Both the position numbers and the translations under genes were made by a program. A DNA stretch of 7,744 nt. Origin: a virus. Lineage: Duplodnaviria; Heunggongvirae; Uroviricota; Caudoviricetes. The notes beneath the pieces are model-generated. The model saw nothing but the letters and a program-made list of their open reading frames with translations. It did no database searches and was not told where the DNA came from. Each line of letters opens with the position of its first letter. Positions within the stretch are counted from its first letter, which is position 1. The stretch lies in the IMG/VR virus record IMGVR_UViG_2660237951_000006; one strand, written 5' to 3'. Below, piece after piece: positions 288 through 7,744 of this stretch.

Positions 288-1493
288 TTACGCCGCTGCA
301 ATCTTCAGCAGTTTGATGGCCTGCGAATCGACCAGCATCCCGCCGGTGCGCTTGGTGGTATAAAAACCGACAAACGGTTTATTGGTGTACGGGTCACGCA
401 GAATGCGGGTGCCGATACGGTCAACGATGGTGTAACCCCGTTTGAAGTTACCAAATGCAATGGCTTTCGCATCAGCGGCGATATCCGGCATCTGTTCGTT
501 TTCAGCGATACCGTAACCCGCCAGAGAGGACGGCTGCCCCAGCTCCAGCCCCGGACGCCACAGATAGTTACCCTCGGTGTCTTTCAGCAGACGGATGGCA
601 AACAGGCTGTTGTTGTTCATCATGAACTTCGCGCCAGTGCGGTGTGCCTTACGCAGCGTGTAAATCAGTTTGATAATGGCGTCTGCGGTCACCGCGGTCG
701 CTTCGCCGGATACAATATGCTGAAGTTTGCCGAACGCCCGGACCTTGTCGGTTTCATCGGTGGATTCATACGCCAGGAACCCTTTCGGCTTCTTGGTGCC
801 ATCGCCTGAGGTAAAGGCAATTTCTTCCTGTTCGGCAAATTCGGTTGCCAGCTCGCTGTTGATCCAGGCCTCCACGTTGAAGAAGGCATCGTCCAGCATT
901 TTCTGGGTAGCCTGCGGGTTGCCGTAGATTTCCCCCATGAGAGGTTCAATCAGCTCCAGTCTGGAGGTGGCAGTCTGGGATCGCGTATCCGTTTCCCCCA
1001 CCCATCCGGAAGCCGTACCGCCCAGATTCACCAGTTTTTTGTAGTCGGAACCGCCAACGGTGATCACCGTGGCTTCCTGACGCATCACCACTTCATCTTT
1101 CAGCAGGTTAAGAATGTTGCGATCCAGTTCTTCCGGCACGGCGTAGCCACCGTCTTCATCGGTACCCACCTGCAATGCCTTACGCTCCAGATCGCGCAGA
1201 CCGTCTTCACGGCCTTTACGCAGGAAGCCCACAAACGCCTCTTTATGCTCGGTGGCCAGTTTATTTTGCGCTCCACCAGCCGGACGTTTCAGCTCAAGCA
1301 GCTCTTTTTCAAGGTCGCTTTTGAGATTTTCCAGCTCGCTTAGTTTCCCGTTCAGGGTTTCCACCTGCCCGGCAAGCTTGCCTTTTTCCTGCTCAATCGC
1401 ATCCACGCGCTTGTCGTTCTTTGCTTTGAAGTCGTCAAACTTCTGCTGCAGCTCCTGCGCGACCTGTTCGACATCTTTAATATCAACCGCCAT
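288..1493 (-). CDS. Major capsid protein, HK97 family, with an N-terminal coiled-coil delta (scaffold-like) domain
   Basis: 401-aa ORF. The first ~100 residues are E/K/L-rich heptad-like coiled coil, typical of the HK97 delta domain, followed by a capsid-fold-sized body. It lies directly downstream of the prohead protease and portal genes, the canonical HK97 order. Confidence 0.9.
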   Translation of the reverse strand: MAVDIKDVEQVAQELQQKFDDFKAKNDKRVDAIEQEKGKLAGQVETLNGKLSELENLKSDLEKELLELKRPAGGAQNKLATEHKEAFVGFLRKGREDGLRDLERKALQVGTDEDGGYAVPEELDRNILNLLKDEVVMRQEATVITVGGSDYKKLVNLGGTASGWVGETDTRSQTATSRLELIEPLMGEIYGNPQATQKMLDDAFFNVEAWINSELATEFAEQEEIAFTSGDGTKKPKGFLAYESTDETDKVRAFGKLQHIVSGEATAVTADAIIKLIYTLRKAHRTGAKFMMNNNSLFAIRLLKDTEGNYLWRPGLELGQPSSLAGYGIAENEQMPDIAADAKAIAFGNFKRGYTIVDRIGTRILRDPYTNKPFVGFYTTKRTGGMLVDSQAIKLLKIAAA

Positions 1494-1507
1494 CGTATTT
1501 CTCCTGA

Positions 1508-2158
1508 TTAGAAGTTCAGATTTTTCAGTGCATTCAGTGCAGAGCCCACATCCTCAGCGTCGCGCAGGGACAGTGCGCCATAGCCCCCGGCCATGAATGC
1601 TTTGGCCTGGGTACGGGAGAGTCCGACATCACGCAGGACTCTTTCGATTTTTTTCTGTTCGGGGATTTCCCCGCGGGCCAGTGCGTTCTTGACGTCGCTG
1701 ATCCGCGCCTCGTCGTTAGACGGGAACGTCACCAGGCTGACTTCCCAGAGGTCGATTTCTTTCAGCAGAAAGGCTTCTTTGCTCCGGTCGTATTCCCAGT
1801 CTTTCAGGACGTACCCAATAGAAAGGCCGGTTAACGAACCGGCCTTCATGTGTGCATGTGCGCGTTTTGCGAGGGGATCATCATCAATAAGCAACCGTCC
1901 CCTGACGTAAAGCCCGACATCGTCTTCCTTCATTTCGGTGTAAACACCGATGGGTTCATCCATGCGGTGCTGCCAGAGCAGCGCAGGTAACGCTTTTCTG
2001 TCACTCCACGCCCGCAGGGAAGCAGCAAATGCCCCGGACATCACCACATCATCGTGGCTGTCCTTTACACCAAAGACGGAGCCATACCCTTCAAACTCAC
2101 CGGAGTCACTGACAGATTTCAGACTCAGCGGTACATCAAGACGTTGTTTCGTCTGCAT
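1508..2158 (-). CDS. Prohead maturation protease, HK97 gp4 family
   Basis: ORF lies between portal and capsid genes, the canonical position. Start chosen at the internal ATG at 2158 (MQTKQRLDV...), which has an AAGGA Shine-Dalgarno 8 nt upstream. The longest ORF start at 2194 has no Shine-Dalgarno and would overlap the portal gene by 59 nt. Confidence 0.85.
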   Translation of the reverse strand: MQTKQRLDVPLSLKSVSDSGEFEGYGSVFGVKDSHDDVVMSGAFAASLRAWSDRKALPALLWQHRMDEPIGVYTEMKEDDVGLYVRGRLLIDDDPLAKRAHAHMKAGSLTGLSIGYVLKDWEYDRSKEAFLLKEIDLWEVSLVTFPSNDEARISDVKNALARGEIPEQKKIERVLRDVGLSRTQAKAFMAGGYGALSLRDAEDVGSALNALKNLNF

Positions 2159-3377
2159 TGGCGTTATCCTTCTGCTTACCGGCTTTACTGCCATCGGAGG
2201 GTTTCGTGGTCATGTTCATCGGTGTGAGATAGACATCACCACCGGGACGCGGATTCATATCTTCCAGGTCGCGGCAGTCATTGGGAGAGTAAATTCCCCA
2301 GTTAATCCCGGTGGCGTAGGCTTCAAAACGGGACTTCATATCCCCGCGCAGTAACGCCCCGGCGTTAAATTTGGCGTAATAAACGCCCTGCTTACTTTTT
2401 CGTACCAGTCCGGTGTTGATCCGCTGTTCGATGCGGGTCAGATACGGCACCAGTGAATAGTTGATAAATCCCAGCCCCAGCTCTTCGATATTGTTGAAGG
2501 TGGCGCGATCGGTGTTCTGCACCATGTGCAACGGCACCCGGAACAGACGACAGATTTCTTCAAGCTGAAACTTGCGGGTTTCCAGGAACTGGCTGTCCTC
2601 GGCGTTCAGCGCCATCGACTTCCAGTCCAGCCCCATCTCAAGGATCATCGGGCGGTGAGCATTGCCAAGCCCGGTGTGACGCTCCTCAAAATCTTTCTTC
2701 AGGCGCTCATAAGCCTGATCTGACAGCGTCTGCTCTGTACGCAACACACCCGACGTCACCGCGCCATTGCTGAACAGTCTGGCCCCGTGCTCTTCGGTCG
2801 CAGCTGCCAGCGATATTGCCTCGCGGGCATAGGCGATGGGATTCAGCCCCACCAGTCCGTCCAGCGTCAGCGTGCGCACATGCCAGATATCCTCCTGGCT
2901 CAGTACATCCGTGGAGCCATCCGGGAATGTGACCTGATAGATCGGCTCCCAGCTACTGTTAAGCTTCGGTACCACACAGCCGGGATCGACGGGCAGCAGT
3001 TCAGCCACTTCGCCAAATGCTTTCACTTTGTAGGCGTAAAAGTTTCCCCGCAGGCACAGACAGGTGACCACCAGCTCCCAGAACTCCTGCGGCGTCATAT
3101 AGCCATTGGGATGCGTGGAGATCAGTTTATGCAGACGTTCGCCGGTGGCTCTCTGCTTCAGGCTGCCGTTCAGGTGATACAGATTGCAGGGCAACATCCC
3201 GACCGACTCTGCCAGCACTCTGACGCAGGAAAAAACCGCCGTCAGTCGCATGGCCCGCTGACTGCTGATCTGCTTTCCGGTATAGGTGTCGTAGGACAAC
3301 CCGATGGCATCCGCCAGCTCTGCTGGCGTGGTCACCGGTGCGTCACTTTTTCGTTGAAATAATCCCGAAAAGAACAC
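2136..3377 (-). CDS. Portal protein, HK97 family
   Basis: 413-aa ORF directly downstream of the terminase large subunit. GTG start at 3377 is preceded by a strong GGAGG 6 nt upstream. The start overlaps the stop of the upstream mini-ORF (TAGTG). Confidence 0.9.
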   Translation of the reverse strand: MFFSGLFQRKSDAPVTTPAELADAIGLSYDTYTGKQISSQRAMRLTAVFSCVRVLAESVGMLPCNLYHLNGSLKQRATGERLHKLISTHPNGYMTPQEFWELVVTCLCLRGNFYAYKVKAFGEVAELLPVDPGCVVPKLNSSWEPIYQVTFPDGSTDVLSQEDIWHVRTLTLDGLVGLNPIAYAREAISLAAATEEHGARLFSNGAVTSGVLRTEQTLSDQAYERLKKDFEERHTGLGNAHRPMILEMGLDWKSMALNAEDSQFLETRKFQLEEICRLFRVPLHMVQNTDRATFNNIEELGLGFINYSLVPYLTRIEQRINTGLVRKSKQGVYYAKFNAGALLRGDMKSRFEAYATGINWGIYSPNDCRDLEDMNPRPGGDVYLTPMNMTTKPSDGSKAGKQKDNANADETTS

Positions 3378-3559
3378 TATTTACCTCCACCAACAGACAG
3401 CTGTGTACGGTCGAGATATCGCGCTACCAGCCACGACCAGAACAGGCACAACGCCCCGGCAACAACAAACCCCGCCGGGGGATAAATCAGCCAGGCACCA
3501 TACGCCAGCAAAAGCGCCCCCAGCACGCCCACCAGAGGCGCGAGAATCAGCATGATCAT
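3377..3559 (-). CDS. Small hydrophobic protein (60 aa) with two predicted transmembrane helices, inserted between terminase large subunit and portal
   Basis: ATG at 3559 with a GAGGT Shine-Dalgarno 5 nt upstream that overlaps the terminase stop. Its TAG stop overlaps the portal GTG start. Sequence [49 protein letters not shown] gives two hydrophobic segments separated by a PP turn, then a short polar tail. Confidence 0.55.
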
Positions 3560-3570
3560 AATTACCTCAG

Positions 3571-5304
3571 TTAAAGCGAGCGGATCCCATAGGACTCAAT
3601 GTGGTCAGACAGCGTGTCTTCTTTCTCGTACAGCATGGCTCTGCCAACCGCCATAATCAGCGCAACTGCACCGTCAATTTTGTTTTCCGCCTGCTCTTTG
3701 ACGGGTTTCACCACATCATCGTTACCCGGAATGGTTTTGCCGACCACATTGCCGATACACCAGGTCATGATGGGATTGCCATCATGATGAAAGCGCCCCG
3801 ATTCAATTGCCGCTTCCAGCTCTTTCATCGGGTCGGACATGTTGGTGTAGTTCTGAATGATAGTGACGGGATTCAGGTCTTCATCAGCAAGGTCATGTGA
3901 CAACCCGGTCGCCCCGAAGGGGTCGATGGGTGACTCACTGACCGGGCTGATTTTGTTCGCCGCTTTGGCCTCCTCGAGGATGTAGCGATAATCCACCTCC
4001 GCACCATCGGTAACGGTCAGAACGCCCATTTCCACCCATTTCTGAAAGCGTTCGGCTGTCCGGCGATCTTCATTTTTCTCGACGCTGTACACCGTGTCAT
4101 ACGGTACCCAGAAGCGCGGAGCCACACTGTAGTAATGCGTTTTACCGTCAATCTCGCGGGTATAAAGTCGCGCCATGCTGTTCATATCCAGCTTACGCGC
4201 CAGGTCAAAGGCCAGAATGCACGGTTGCCCCTCGAACTGCTCAAGGGTCAGTGATTTATCCTCGCAGCTCTGCCAGCTCACCAGGTTGAAATACGCCGAA
4301 CGCGCCGACACCCAGATATTGAGGTGTTTTGTTTTAAAGACGTTTGCCAGACGGGCGTTATTTTTCGCACGCTGCTGCTGACTTAACAAAAATTCGCGAT
4401 AAACCGACACGCCAATATTCGGGTTAGCTTTTTCCAGCACCTGCGGGTCGGTCCAGTCATCACCTTCATCAACGGTATAGATGATCCCGAACAGTTCATC
4501 GTTGGGCACCGAGCCGTTGAGCATCTCGATGACTTCCCGCCGCTTGTCGTAGCACGGCCCCTCAATGTTGTACCCGGCAGTAGTAATGGCCCACATCAGT
4601 GGCTGACGTCGCGCCCCCATCCCGGTAAGCATCGTGGTGTAAAGCGCATCGGTGGCGTGCTCGTGATATTCATCCACCACCGCACAGTGGGGTGATGAAC
4701 CATCACCGGGGTTACCGATCAGCGGTTCAAACCGCGCGCCATCCTCCGGACGATTCATGTTTGAGGCGTTAACCTCAATCCCGAACGCTTCCGTCAGCAT
4801 GGGTGTGCGTTTACACATCAGTCGCGCCGGGCGAAAGACTTCCCACGCCTGTTTCTCTGTCGTGGCACCGGAATACACTTCCGCGCCAAACTCGTTATCA
4901 CAGGCAAAACAATACAGGGCAACACCGGCAGAGATTGCCGATTTGCCGTTCTTACGGGGGATTTCGGTATACACCTCCCGGAAGCGGCGCAGCCGGGACC
5001 CTTTATTGACCCAGCCAAACGCACAGCAGACCACAAATAGCTGCCACGGCTCCAGCGTGATGGGCATCCTCTTGAATGCCCACTCACCCTTGGTGTGCGG
5101 CAACAGCTGAATAAATTTGGCGGCCCGTTCAGCCAGGTCCTTGTCGAAGCGGTAACGAAACGACTTACTTTTTTCCGCCATCAGGTCATCAAGATGGCGC
5201 TGGCAGGCCTGAATCACAAACTGGCAGGCCACAATCTTTCCGCGCACAACATCACGGGCATACTGATTGGCAGCATTTACGTTGGGGTAAGATTTCCGGC
5301 TCAT
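3571..5304 (-). CDS. Terminase large subunit (ATPase/nuclease)
   Basis: 577-aa ORF. Walker A-like GKS motif ([11 protein letters not shown]) and Walker B-like VVDEYHE in the N-terminal half. The ATG start overlaps the small-subunit stop (ATGA) at 5301-5304. Confidence 0.92.
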
Positions 5305-5795
5305 GACTCGATGATTTTCAGAAACGGGTTAGTGGCTTTCTTCTGCCCCGCCAGGCCAATCAGACGCTGGCGGCTGCTGGGGTCGAGTCCGAGCATTGCC
5401 CCCGTGCTGCTCATCTCGGACTCCTGTTCTTTTTTGGCGGTCAGCTCCGGATTTTTGACCCTGCCGCCCATTGCACCGGTGATGGTGTTGCCCTGTATGG
5501 CAATATTTTTCACGGCACGTCGCCAGAACTCATAGGCCACGCACCACCGCTCAAGCACCGCGAGGTCAGTCACGCACAACAGGCCATGACCGCAGAGTTC
5601 TTTGGTTGTCAGTTGCCACATGATCGTGGCGAGAGGGAGATCTTCTTCAGCGAACCACTCTGGTGGCTCAACACCTTTGATGGGCGTAAAAACAGGTTCA
5701 TCTTTGTTCAGGGCTCGCTTGCCGGGGTTTCCGGCCAGCGCCTTGCGCGCCGTTGGCTTGGGGCGACGCCCGGAACGCCCCGCCGTTCCAGCCAT
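5301..5795 (-). CDS. Terminase small subunit (P27 / HK97 gp1-like)
   Basis: About 164 aa, basic N-terminus, immediately upstream of and overlapping the large subunit. Start placed at ATG 5795, which has AGGAG 8 nt upstream. The track's GTG at 5804 has no properly spaced Shine-Dalgarno. Confidence 0.8.
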
Positions 5796-5845
5796 ATGCG
5801 GCACTCCTGGTTAAATTTCATTTTTCGCGGGTATAAAAAAACGAT

Positions 5846-5920: not shown

Positions 5921-6271
5921 TCACTTTAGCCGTTCACGGGCCGTCTTCGCCTTATGGCACGGCCAGCACAGGCTCTGCAGATTGCTGTCGGCATCTGTGC
6001 CGCCATGCGCTTTAGGAATGATGTGGTCAACGGTTTTCGCCTCACGTACCACACCACCACGCAGACATAACTGACACAGTCCTTTGTCACGCTTGAGCAC
6101 ACGTTCACGGATAACATCCCATTTCGAACCATAACCGCGCTGGTGTCTGGACTGGCCCGGCTTGTATTGCTTCCAGCCTTCACTTTTGTGGCTTTCGCAA
6201 TAGCCTGACGGGTCAGTTGTGGTATGGCGGCAGCCGCGAACACTGCAGGCTTTTGGGGTTCGTGGCGGCAT
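5921..6271 (-). CDS. HNH endonuclease (packaging-associated, HK97 gp74-like)
   Basis: 116-aa ORF with a zinc-binding Cys cluster (CSVRGC...C) and HNH core DHIIPKAHGGTDADSNLQSLCWPCHKAKT. It sits directly upstream of the terminase small subunit, as in HK97-like phages. Confidence 0.88.
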   Translation of the reverse strand: MPPRTPKACSVRGCRHTTTDPSGYCESHKSEGWKQYKPGQSRHQRGYGSKWDVIRERVLKRDKGLCQLCLRGGVVREAKTVDHIIPKAHGGTDADSNLQSLCWPCHKAKTARERLK

Positions 6272-6953: not shown

Positions 6954-7394
6954 TCACTTAAGACACTGCTCTTTGATGTATTCCTGCAAATATCCAACCT
7001 GTTTCGTCACTGTGACGATTCGCTCTCTGAGGGTGAAATAATCCCGTTCAGCGGAGTCAGTAAGTCGGGGGCCGGTAACATCGCCCAGGCCGCCGGTGCT
7101 GGTCGTTCCGTTCGCGGGACAGTTTGCGTTGAGCTGCAGCCGCTTACGGCCAGCAGAAACATCAGCACGGAGACTTTCGATAGTAGCGTTAGCATCAGCA
7201 AGCTCCTTTGTGTATCTGGCGTCGAGTTCTGCTACATCACGTTGACGCTTCTGCATGTCAGCGATTGTGGATGCGGCTTTATCGCGCTGTTCTTTGTAGG
7301 CGATGGCGTTATCACGGTAATGATTAACAGCCCATGACAGGCAGACGATGATGCAGATAACCAGAGCGGAGATAATCGCGGTTACTCTGCTCAT
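6954..7394 (-). CDS. Rz: Rz inner-membrane spanin (i-spanin), lambda Rz-like
   Basis: 146-aa ORF with an N-terminal transmembrane segment ([23 protein letters not shown]) and a coiled-coil periplasmic domain. The N-terminus and the [10 protein letters not shown] motif match my recollection of lambda Rz. The ATG overlaps the endolysin stop (ATGA). Confidence 0.9.
7007..7201 (-). CDS. Rz1: Rz1 outer-membrane lipoprotein spanin (o-spanin), embedded in the +1 frame of Rz
   Basis: ORF lies entirely inside Rz in another frame. Signal peptide with lipobox LAVSGC, a proline-rich mature part, and the C-terminal motif [11 protein letters not shown] shared with lambda Rz1. The true start may be a downstream Met. 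Confidence 0.85.
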
Positions 7395-7744
7395 ACCTCA
7401 ATCTCTCTGACCGTTCCGCCAGCTTCTTTGAATTTTGCAATCAGGCTGTCAGCCTTATGCTCGAACTGACCATAACCAGCGCCCGGCAGTGAAGCCCAGA
7501 TATTGCTGCAACGGTCGATTGCCTGACGAATATCGCCGCGATCAATCATTGGTAAAGCGCCACGTTCTTTAATCTGCTGCAGAGCTACAGCGTCCTGGCT
7601 TTCTGGAGAAAAATCTTTCAGGCCAAGCTGTTTACGGTAAGCATCCCACCAGCGTGAAAGAAGCTGGTAACGTCCGGCAGCTGTTGATTTGAGTTTGGGG
7701 TTTAGCGTGACAAGTTTGCGAGGGTGATCGGAGTAATCAGTGAA
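7391..7744 (-). CDS. R: Endolysin (lambda R-type lytic transglycosylase), 3' portion; the N-terminus lies beyond the window edge
   Basis: My own translation of the minus strand from 7744 gives [117 protein letters not shown], then a stop. This matches my recollection of the lambda R C-terminus almost residue for residue. The track omits it because no start codon is inside the window. Confidence 0.9.

Follow-up and report, generated by a model that had tools for sequence, protein, structure and literature searches.

We examined the junction between the portal gene and the HK97-family prohead protease gene in a 7,744-nucleotide (nt) stretch of tailed-phage DNA (Caudoviricetes; IMG/VR record IMGVR_UViG_2660237951_000006; hereafter the window, whose positions are used throughout). 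The protease very probably starts at the ATG at 2158 and is 216 amino acids (aa) long, and the in-frame ATG at 2194, which opens the longest open reading frame (ORF), appears to have arisen by chance from portal codons. Initiation at 2158 is most likely directed by a Shine-Dalgarno (SD) sequence and largely independent, and some help may come from ribosomes translating the portal gene. The sequence comparisons show the coordinates, the protein families, the conserved start and SD and the unconserved upstream frame; from them we infer both the ATG that ribosomes use and the mode of initiation. In the arrangement that we propose, an AAGGA at 2171-2167, inside the last portal codons, would recruit ribosomes, and translation from ATG 2158 would give a protease beginning MQTKQRLD. 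The portal frame would continue for 23 nt and stop at a TGA that spans protease codons Leu7-Asp8. ATG 2194 would be an accidental, non-functional start, and the 12-residue extension that follows it (MAVKPVSRRITP) would be an out-of-frame reading of the portal tail. Initiation at 2158 would be largely de novo, at most aided by ribosomes passing through and terminating just beyond.

On the minus strand, where all the genes of the window lie, the 3' end of the portal frame reads ...AAG GAT AAC GCC AAT GCA GAC GAA ACA ACG TCT TGA, and the protease frame across the same region reads ATG(2194) GCA GTA AAG CCG GTA AGC AGA AGG ATA ACG CCA ATG(2158) CAG ACG AAA CAA CGT CTT GAT. There is no in-frame GTG or TTG between the two ATGs. 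Counted from ATG 2194, the overlap with the portal gene is 59 nt. The predicted duplex energy with the anti-SD sequence is -5.5 kcal/mol at 2158 versus +0.1 kcal/mol at 2194, where no SD is present. A previous sequence-only reading of this DNA had identified the portal and protease genes, reported overlaps of 59 nt and 23 nt for the two starts, and assigned the AAGGA to 2158 and no SD to 2194; all of this holds, including the coordinates.

We compared this junction with those of related loci. A scan of the GTDB species-representative genomes (185,579 species) yielded 71 loci with 41-100% protein identity, from Enterobacterales, Pseudomonas, Acinetobacter, Gilliamella, Endozoicomonas, Alishewanella and alphaproteobacterial metagenome-assembled genomes (MAGs), and these loci, together with the window and four phage loci, gave 65 distinct junction sequences. 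A start codon was present at the site homologous to 2158, or at most three codons upstream of it, in 61 of the 65 junctions, and 58 of those 61 had an SD core ahead of that start with a spacer of 4-12 nt. An in-frame stop was found between the positions of 2194 and 2158 in 25 of the 65 junctions (in Pseudomonas, Acinetobacter, Gilliamella, Endozoicomonas and one Citrobacter), and therefore the long form is impossible there. A far-upstream in-frame start of any kind was present in 11 of the 65 junctions, with an SD essentially absent in 9 of them.

Conservation along the protease frame was measured in 48 distinct junctions that had an ATG at the homologous position and at least 60% identity. 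The frequency of the commonest residue was 0.33 over codons -12 to -1 versus 0.85 over codons 0 to 9, which comprise the conserved protease N-terminus M-x-T-K-Q-R-L-D-x-P, and 42% of the 48 sequences had a stop within codons -12 to -1. Upstream, the portal frame carried a conserved YLTPMNMTT motif followed by a variable tail rich in Lys, Glu and Asp. The sequence-only reading had leaned to ATG 2158 and had proposed an alignment of homologues as a check, in which conserved N-terminal residues would speak for 2194; the comparison favoured 2158, and we found no such conservation in the extension. In a DNA alignment of five phages, ATG 2158 and the GGA of the SD were invariant, and the position of 2194 was CTG in phiP27 and ACA in the Klebsiella phage. 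The profile matches begin at residue 26 (PF04586) and residue 32 (TIGR01543) of the long form, and the extension lies outside both. Residue 24 of HK97 gp4 pairs with residue 32 of the long form, so that the match is preceded by 23 residues of gp4, whereas the short form has 19 residues there and the long form 31. Database homologues were overwhelmingly 215-218 aa long and spanned 95% of the 228-aa query.

The presence of an ATG at 2194 has a probable origin in the portal gene. The portal codons GAT-GGC, which encode the Asp-Gly of SDGSK, contain this ATG at their centre. The relatives with GAT-GGC (L009, L033, L015, L019 and L020) also have an upstream ATG, at -36 or -39, and those with GAC-GGC (L010, L023 and L024) have none; therefore ATG 2194 would be a side effect of the synonymous codons used in the portal gene.

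Several observations weigh against a start at 2158. The SD at this ATG is modest and only moderately unusual, and by itself it is weak evidence: a 4-mer SD core with a 5-10 nt spacer was also found at 14 of the 152 gene-strand ATGs (9%), and 30% of the gene-strand ATGs reach -5.5 kcal/mol under the permissive duplex-energy criterion. All 80 near-identical viral contigs retain ATG 2194, and the GenBank records of SfIV, SfI and ST64B, together with the viral RefSeq record of SfIV, carry the long coding sequence (CDS). A literature search on SfIV, ST64B and related phages found no N-terminal sequence, proteomics or initiation-site profiling of the protease, and low-level use of 2194 may occur in the SfIV-type lineage. 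As to the SD, what goes beyond chance is the conservation of its core across related junctions and not the SD itself. The retention of 2194 in close relatives can be attributed to the portal Asp-Gly codons and to divergence too low to be informative: across the 80 contigs there were five variants between the two ATGs (three synonymous in the portal frame only, one in the protease frame only and one in neither), which are too few to discriminate between the frames.

That the longest ORF is the real gene, with ATG 2194 opening a 228-aa protease, is thus favoured by those records and by that retention; the missing SD, the loss of the codon in phiP27 and the Klebsiella phage, the stops and the low conservation within the extension and the rejection of 2194 by the Prokaryotic Genome Annotation Pipeline (PGAP) make it highly improbable. 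Use of both ATGs in the SfIV lineage, which would give the 216-aa protease as the main product and, as a lesser one, a 228-aa isoform that carries a basic N-terminal extension, is also very unlikely, if a little less so. In the SfIV/ST64B lineage the two ATGs share a reading frame that no stop interrupts, and the few relatives with an ATG at -36 or -39 could be read in the same way. However, upstream ATGs occur only where the portal Asp-Gly is written GAT-GGC and are gone with GAC-GGC, as a by-product predicts; the upstream ATG is without an SD, the extension is without conservation, and nothing supports a function for it.

The start at 2158 is already the one in mainstream annotation (RefSeq/PGAP), and the choice between the two ATGs is an ordinary start-codon question. 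The long 687-nt form is annotated in the GenBank records of SfIV (AGY37055.1), SfI (AFR52513.1) and ST64B Sb5 (AAL25884.1), as well as in the viral RefSeq copy of SfIV, NC_022749. PGAP gives the 216-aa form (651-nt CDS) in the two RefSeq Escherichia coli records examined (WP_001193631.1 and WP_001193633.1), and the short 651-nt form is also found in phiP27 (L39, CAC83557.1) and vB_EcoM-720R4 (URC09693.1); the Klebsiella phage record has a short form of 654 nt. The short-form records (WP_001193631.1, CAC83557.1 and URC09693.1) start at the ATG equivalent to 2158 and show no substantive difference from the form preferred here. On this point the SfIV genome paper says just that each ORF was assigned an SD and a start codon. 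The protease is therefore probably 12 residues too long in the GenBank records of SfIV, SfI and ST64B and in viral RefSeq NC_022749, and the right N-terminus is relevant to expressing the protease or modelling prohead assembly. The junction would make a textbook case of a longest-ORF start produced by the codons of an overlapping upstream gene, and it raises no new biological question. We also noted that the viral RefSeq record of SfIV labels the protease 'major head protein' over the long CDS (NC_022749.1, 3669-4355), and that several further RefSeq phage records have 'major head protein (x2)' over the same gene pair.

The 23-nt overlap between the portal gene and the preferred protease start is real and conserved, because the portal stop and the supported start are both fixed. 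An identical 23-nt overlap, with TGA across the protease codons CTT GAT, was present in 36 of the 65 junctions, an 11-17 nt overlap with TAA across ACT AAA in 15, and no overlap but a gap of 14-20 nt in 5. All overlap lengths (-11, -14, -17 and -23) are phase 1. Among the loci L005-L075 (about 1955-2030 in each), the portal stop alternates between TGA in the Leu-Asp codons CTT GAT and TAA in the Thr-Lys codons ACT AAA, and the substitutions responsible leave the protease residues unchanged; the preceding portal tail is of variable length and has many Lys, Glu and Asp residues. Long phase 1 overlaps are several-fold commoner than those of phase 2, an excess attributed to their inability to shorten to the efficient -4 or -1 arrangements, and long overlaps have been described as typically uncoupled (PMC10666635). 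The lengths seen here fit the -8, -11, -14... series of that class, and the pattern agrees with the origin suggested for it, namely growth of the upstream gene into the ORF that follows; relatives free of overlap exist too. That study is a genome-wide statistical description.

The sequence-only reading had taken the overlap to suggest coupled translation of portal and protease. As a strict mechanism, in which ribosomes that end at the TGA at 2136-2138 back up 23 nt and reinitiate at ATG 2158, this is unsupported, and we regard it as unlikely, albeit the least unlikely of the alternatives. An overlap is kept in 51 of the 65 junctions, and the same operon has classic -4 (TerS/TerL) and -1 (ymfR/portal) overlaps. 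Ribosomes have been proposed to scan backwards once they terminate (Adhin and van Duin 1990, summarised in PMC10666635), and in E. coli an SD boosts reinitiation as well as de novo initiation (PMC6728339). The conservation of the SD, which enhances termination-reinitiation too, does not separate de novo from coupled initiation, and to that extent it also weighs against the independent initiation that we favour.

Against strict coupling stands, first, the distance. Reinitiation in E. coli drops steeply past a few nucleotides and is efficient where stop and start overlap or lie at -8 to about +6 nt (PMC10666635); the distances here are -23 nt for 2158 and -59 nt for 2194, and the class of long phase 1 overlaps is said to persist through its inability to shorten and not through coupling. 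Second, coupled pairs have been proposed to need local structure that blocks de novo initiation (PMC6728339), and no masking RNA structure was predicted at the ribosome-binding site: the 131-nt fold had an energy of -27 kcal/mol versus a shuffle mean of -27.15 (z = 0.04), with the SD weakly paired, and therefore the SD should be accessible. A conserved SD also permits ribosomes to initiate there independently. Third, the five related junctions with 14-20 nt gaps, and separately HK97 with a gap of 17 nt, have the same SD and ATG. Finally, HK97 Prohead 1 contains about 60 copies of the protease versus 12 of the portal (PMC12749128), a ratio of about 5:1 that cannot be reached with at most one reinitiation per termination; it can therefore be argued that initiation is not limited by portal translation. 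A promoter scan of positions 1400-3700 found no promoter-like site and thus no separate promoter signal for the protease, and an Rfam scan of the whole window matched no family.

Within the operon, the portal/protease junction is the sole long overlap. In phages fr and MS2, the lysis gene start reportedly lacks its own efficient ribosome-binding site and relies on nearby termination. Unlike that start, the protease start in the window has a conserved and properly spaced SD that is not predicted to be masked. The likeness between the two systems lies in the layout, since in the coat-lysis pair of fr/MS2 the downstream start also precedes the upstream stop by tens of nucleotides, and backward reinitiation was proposed there (PMC10666635). 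We consider SD-directed initiation at 2158, largely independent of the portal gene, to be the most likely mode. A more elaborate proposal, in which the conserved overlap and the embedded SD form a tuned device, with portal ribosome traffic modulating initiation at 2158 and so setting the portal:protease ratio, and with a minor 228-aa isoform from 2194 that has a function of its own in the SfIV/ST64B lineage, seems to us very improbable.

A programmed +1 frameshift at the portal stop, which would yield a portal-protease fusion protein, was also considered. The protease ORF, which is read in the +1 frame with respect to the portal gene, contains the portal stop, and rare database proteins join portal and protease sequence (P0002 and P0020). 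However, the sequence at the portal stop, ACG TCT TGA T, has neither a prfB-like CUU UGA slippery context nor an SD-like stimulator at the right distance, and 15 of the 65 relatives have the portal stop at a different site (TAA), with no conserved shift site. Judged from their protein sequences, P0002 is best explained by an indel and P0020 by an internal deletion, and not by recoding; such changes are to be expected in decaying prophages. In the absence of a slippery site we rejected this fusion, whose probability we put close to nil. In P0020 (346 aa, 8 contigs), portal residues 1-163 run directly into the protease, with the apparent deletion at SQED|SHDD; in P0002 the apparent indel is in the tail, and another protein, P0001, has an internal duplication. 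All three look like decayed or mis-assembled versions of the module.

The identity of the protease is well supported. It matched PF04586 (Peptidase_S78; E=1.2e-31, 110.5 bits against a cut-off of 21) and TIGR01543 (E=1.8e-46, 157.8 bits against a cut-off of 59), and BLASTP aligned it with HK97 gp4 at 36% identity over 174 residues. In that alignment, His65 and Ser114 of gp4, which we take to be the catalytic positions, pair with the His of WQHRMDE and the Ser of GLSIGY, respectively. A search of solved-structure sequences with the protease matched nothing relevant. HK97 and the window share the Peptidase S78/TIGR01543 family and the portal-protease-capsid gene order, and the proteases are of similar length (225 aa for gp4 versus 216 aa). 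They differ at the junction: HK97 has its gap and a putative terminator between portal and protease, whereas the protease start of the window lies 23 nt inside the portal gene.

The window contains the head-assembly genes of a temperate phage of the SfIV/SfI/SfII/ST64B type. It matches the head module of Shigella phage SfIV (SfI/SfII/ST64B group) at 99.8% identity, and SfI, SfII, ST64B and several E. coli phages at 97-99.6%. The module, which was present in 1093 of 5426 complete E. coli genomes, is a very common prophage head-gene cluster of Shigella, E. coli and Salmonella that has been sequenced before. Its gene order is small terminase (TerS), large terminase (TerL), a ymfR-like ORF, portal, HK97-family prohead protease and major capsid protein (Table 1). 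The portal protein scored above the curated cut-offs of PF04860 (E=6e-108, 361.3 bits) and TIGR01537 (E=2.7e-77, 260.2 bits), and PGAP has an identical 1242-nt portal CDS. The profile matches end at residue 373 (Pfam) and residue 379 (TIGRFAM) of 413, and therefore the overlap falls in the variable C-terminal portal tail. The capsid gene has an SD with a predicted duplex energy of -7.4 kcal/mol. In the 401-residue capsid protein the Pfam domain begins at residue 115, after an N-terminal extension of about 114 residues, as expected in this family for a scaffold (delta) domain in a capsid protein encoded next to the protease.

Table 1. Features of the portal/protease/capsid region of the window.
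Feature	Coordinates	Strand	Remarks
Portal gene	2136..3377	-	413 aa; GTG start at 3377, TGA stop at 2138-2136
Upstream in-frame ATG, probably unused	2192..2194	-	Made by portal codons GAT-GGC (Asp-Gly)
Protease longest ORF	2194->1508	-	228 aa, 687 nt; ATG at 2194-2192
Shine-Dalgarno AAGGA	2167..2171	-	8-nt spacer to ATG 2158; within portal codons AAG GAT (Lys-Asp)
Likeliest protease initiation codon (ATG)	2156..2158	-	Favoured by conservation and SD
Portal/protease overlap, 23 nt	2136..2158	-	Portal TGA across protease codons CTT GAT (Leu-Asp)
Prohead (head maturation) protease CDS, preferred form	1508..2158	-	216 aa; N-terminus MQTKQRLDVP
Major capsid protein gene	288..1493	-	PF05065, E=3.8e-79; 14 nt 3' of the protease stop

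An antisense ORF at 1950-2354 (+) had no Pfam match and was treated as spurious. With regard to the other junctions, TerS and TerL overlap by the classic 4 nt at 5301-5304 (-), and the 60-aa ymfR-like ORF ends in a TAG that has 1 nt in common with the portal GTG (TAGTG; 3375-3379, -), behind a strong GGAGG. Inside this ymfR-like ORF, between the terminase and portal genes, is a hairpin that resembles a terminator (3514-3541, -), with 12 pairs, 7 of which are G-C, and TTTTGC after it. The small terminase gene shows the same start ambiguity as the protease at 5795-5804 (-): its longest ORF opens at GTG 5804, which has no SD (+0.4 kcal/mol), and the ATG at 5795 has an SD of -6.9 kcal/mol and is the start chosen by PGAP (495-nt CDS).

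An HNH endonuclease gene (PF01844) was found at 5921-6271 (-), just upstream of the small terminase gene; an HNH gene next to the small terminase is common in HK97-like cos phages. Further along, an Rz spanin gene at 6954-7394 (-; PF03245, E=1.8e-40) contains an embedded out-of-frame ORF at 7007-7201 (-) for an Rz1-like lipoprotein with an LLAVSGC lipobox and a Pro-rich tail, and Rz with a nested Rz1 is the usual arrangement of a spanin pair. The ORF at 7391-7744 (-) runs off the end of the window, and by eye the C-terminal part that it encodes looks like a partial endolysin. Finally, among the loci L007, L008 and L036, a protease 100% identical to that of the window was found on a 'Bacillota bacterium' MAG contig and on an Edwardsiella hoshinae contig, and a protease of 76% identity on a contig labelled Martelella alba, an alphaproteobacterium; these host labels probably reflect contamination or mis-binning, or else recent transfer.

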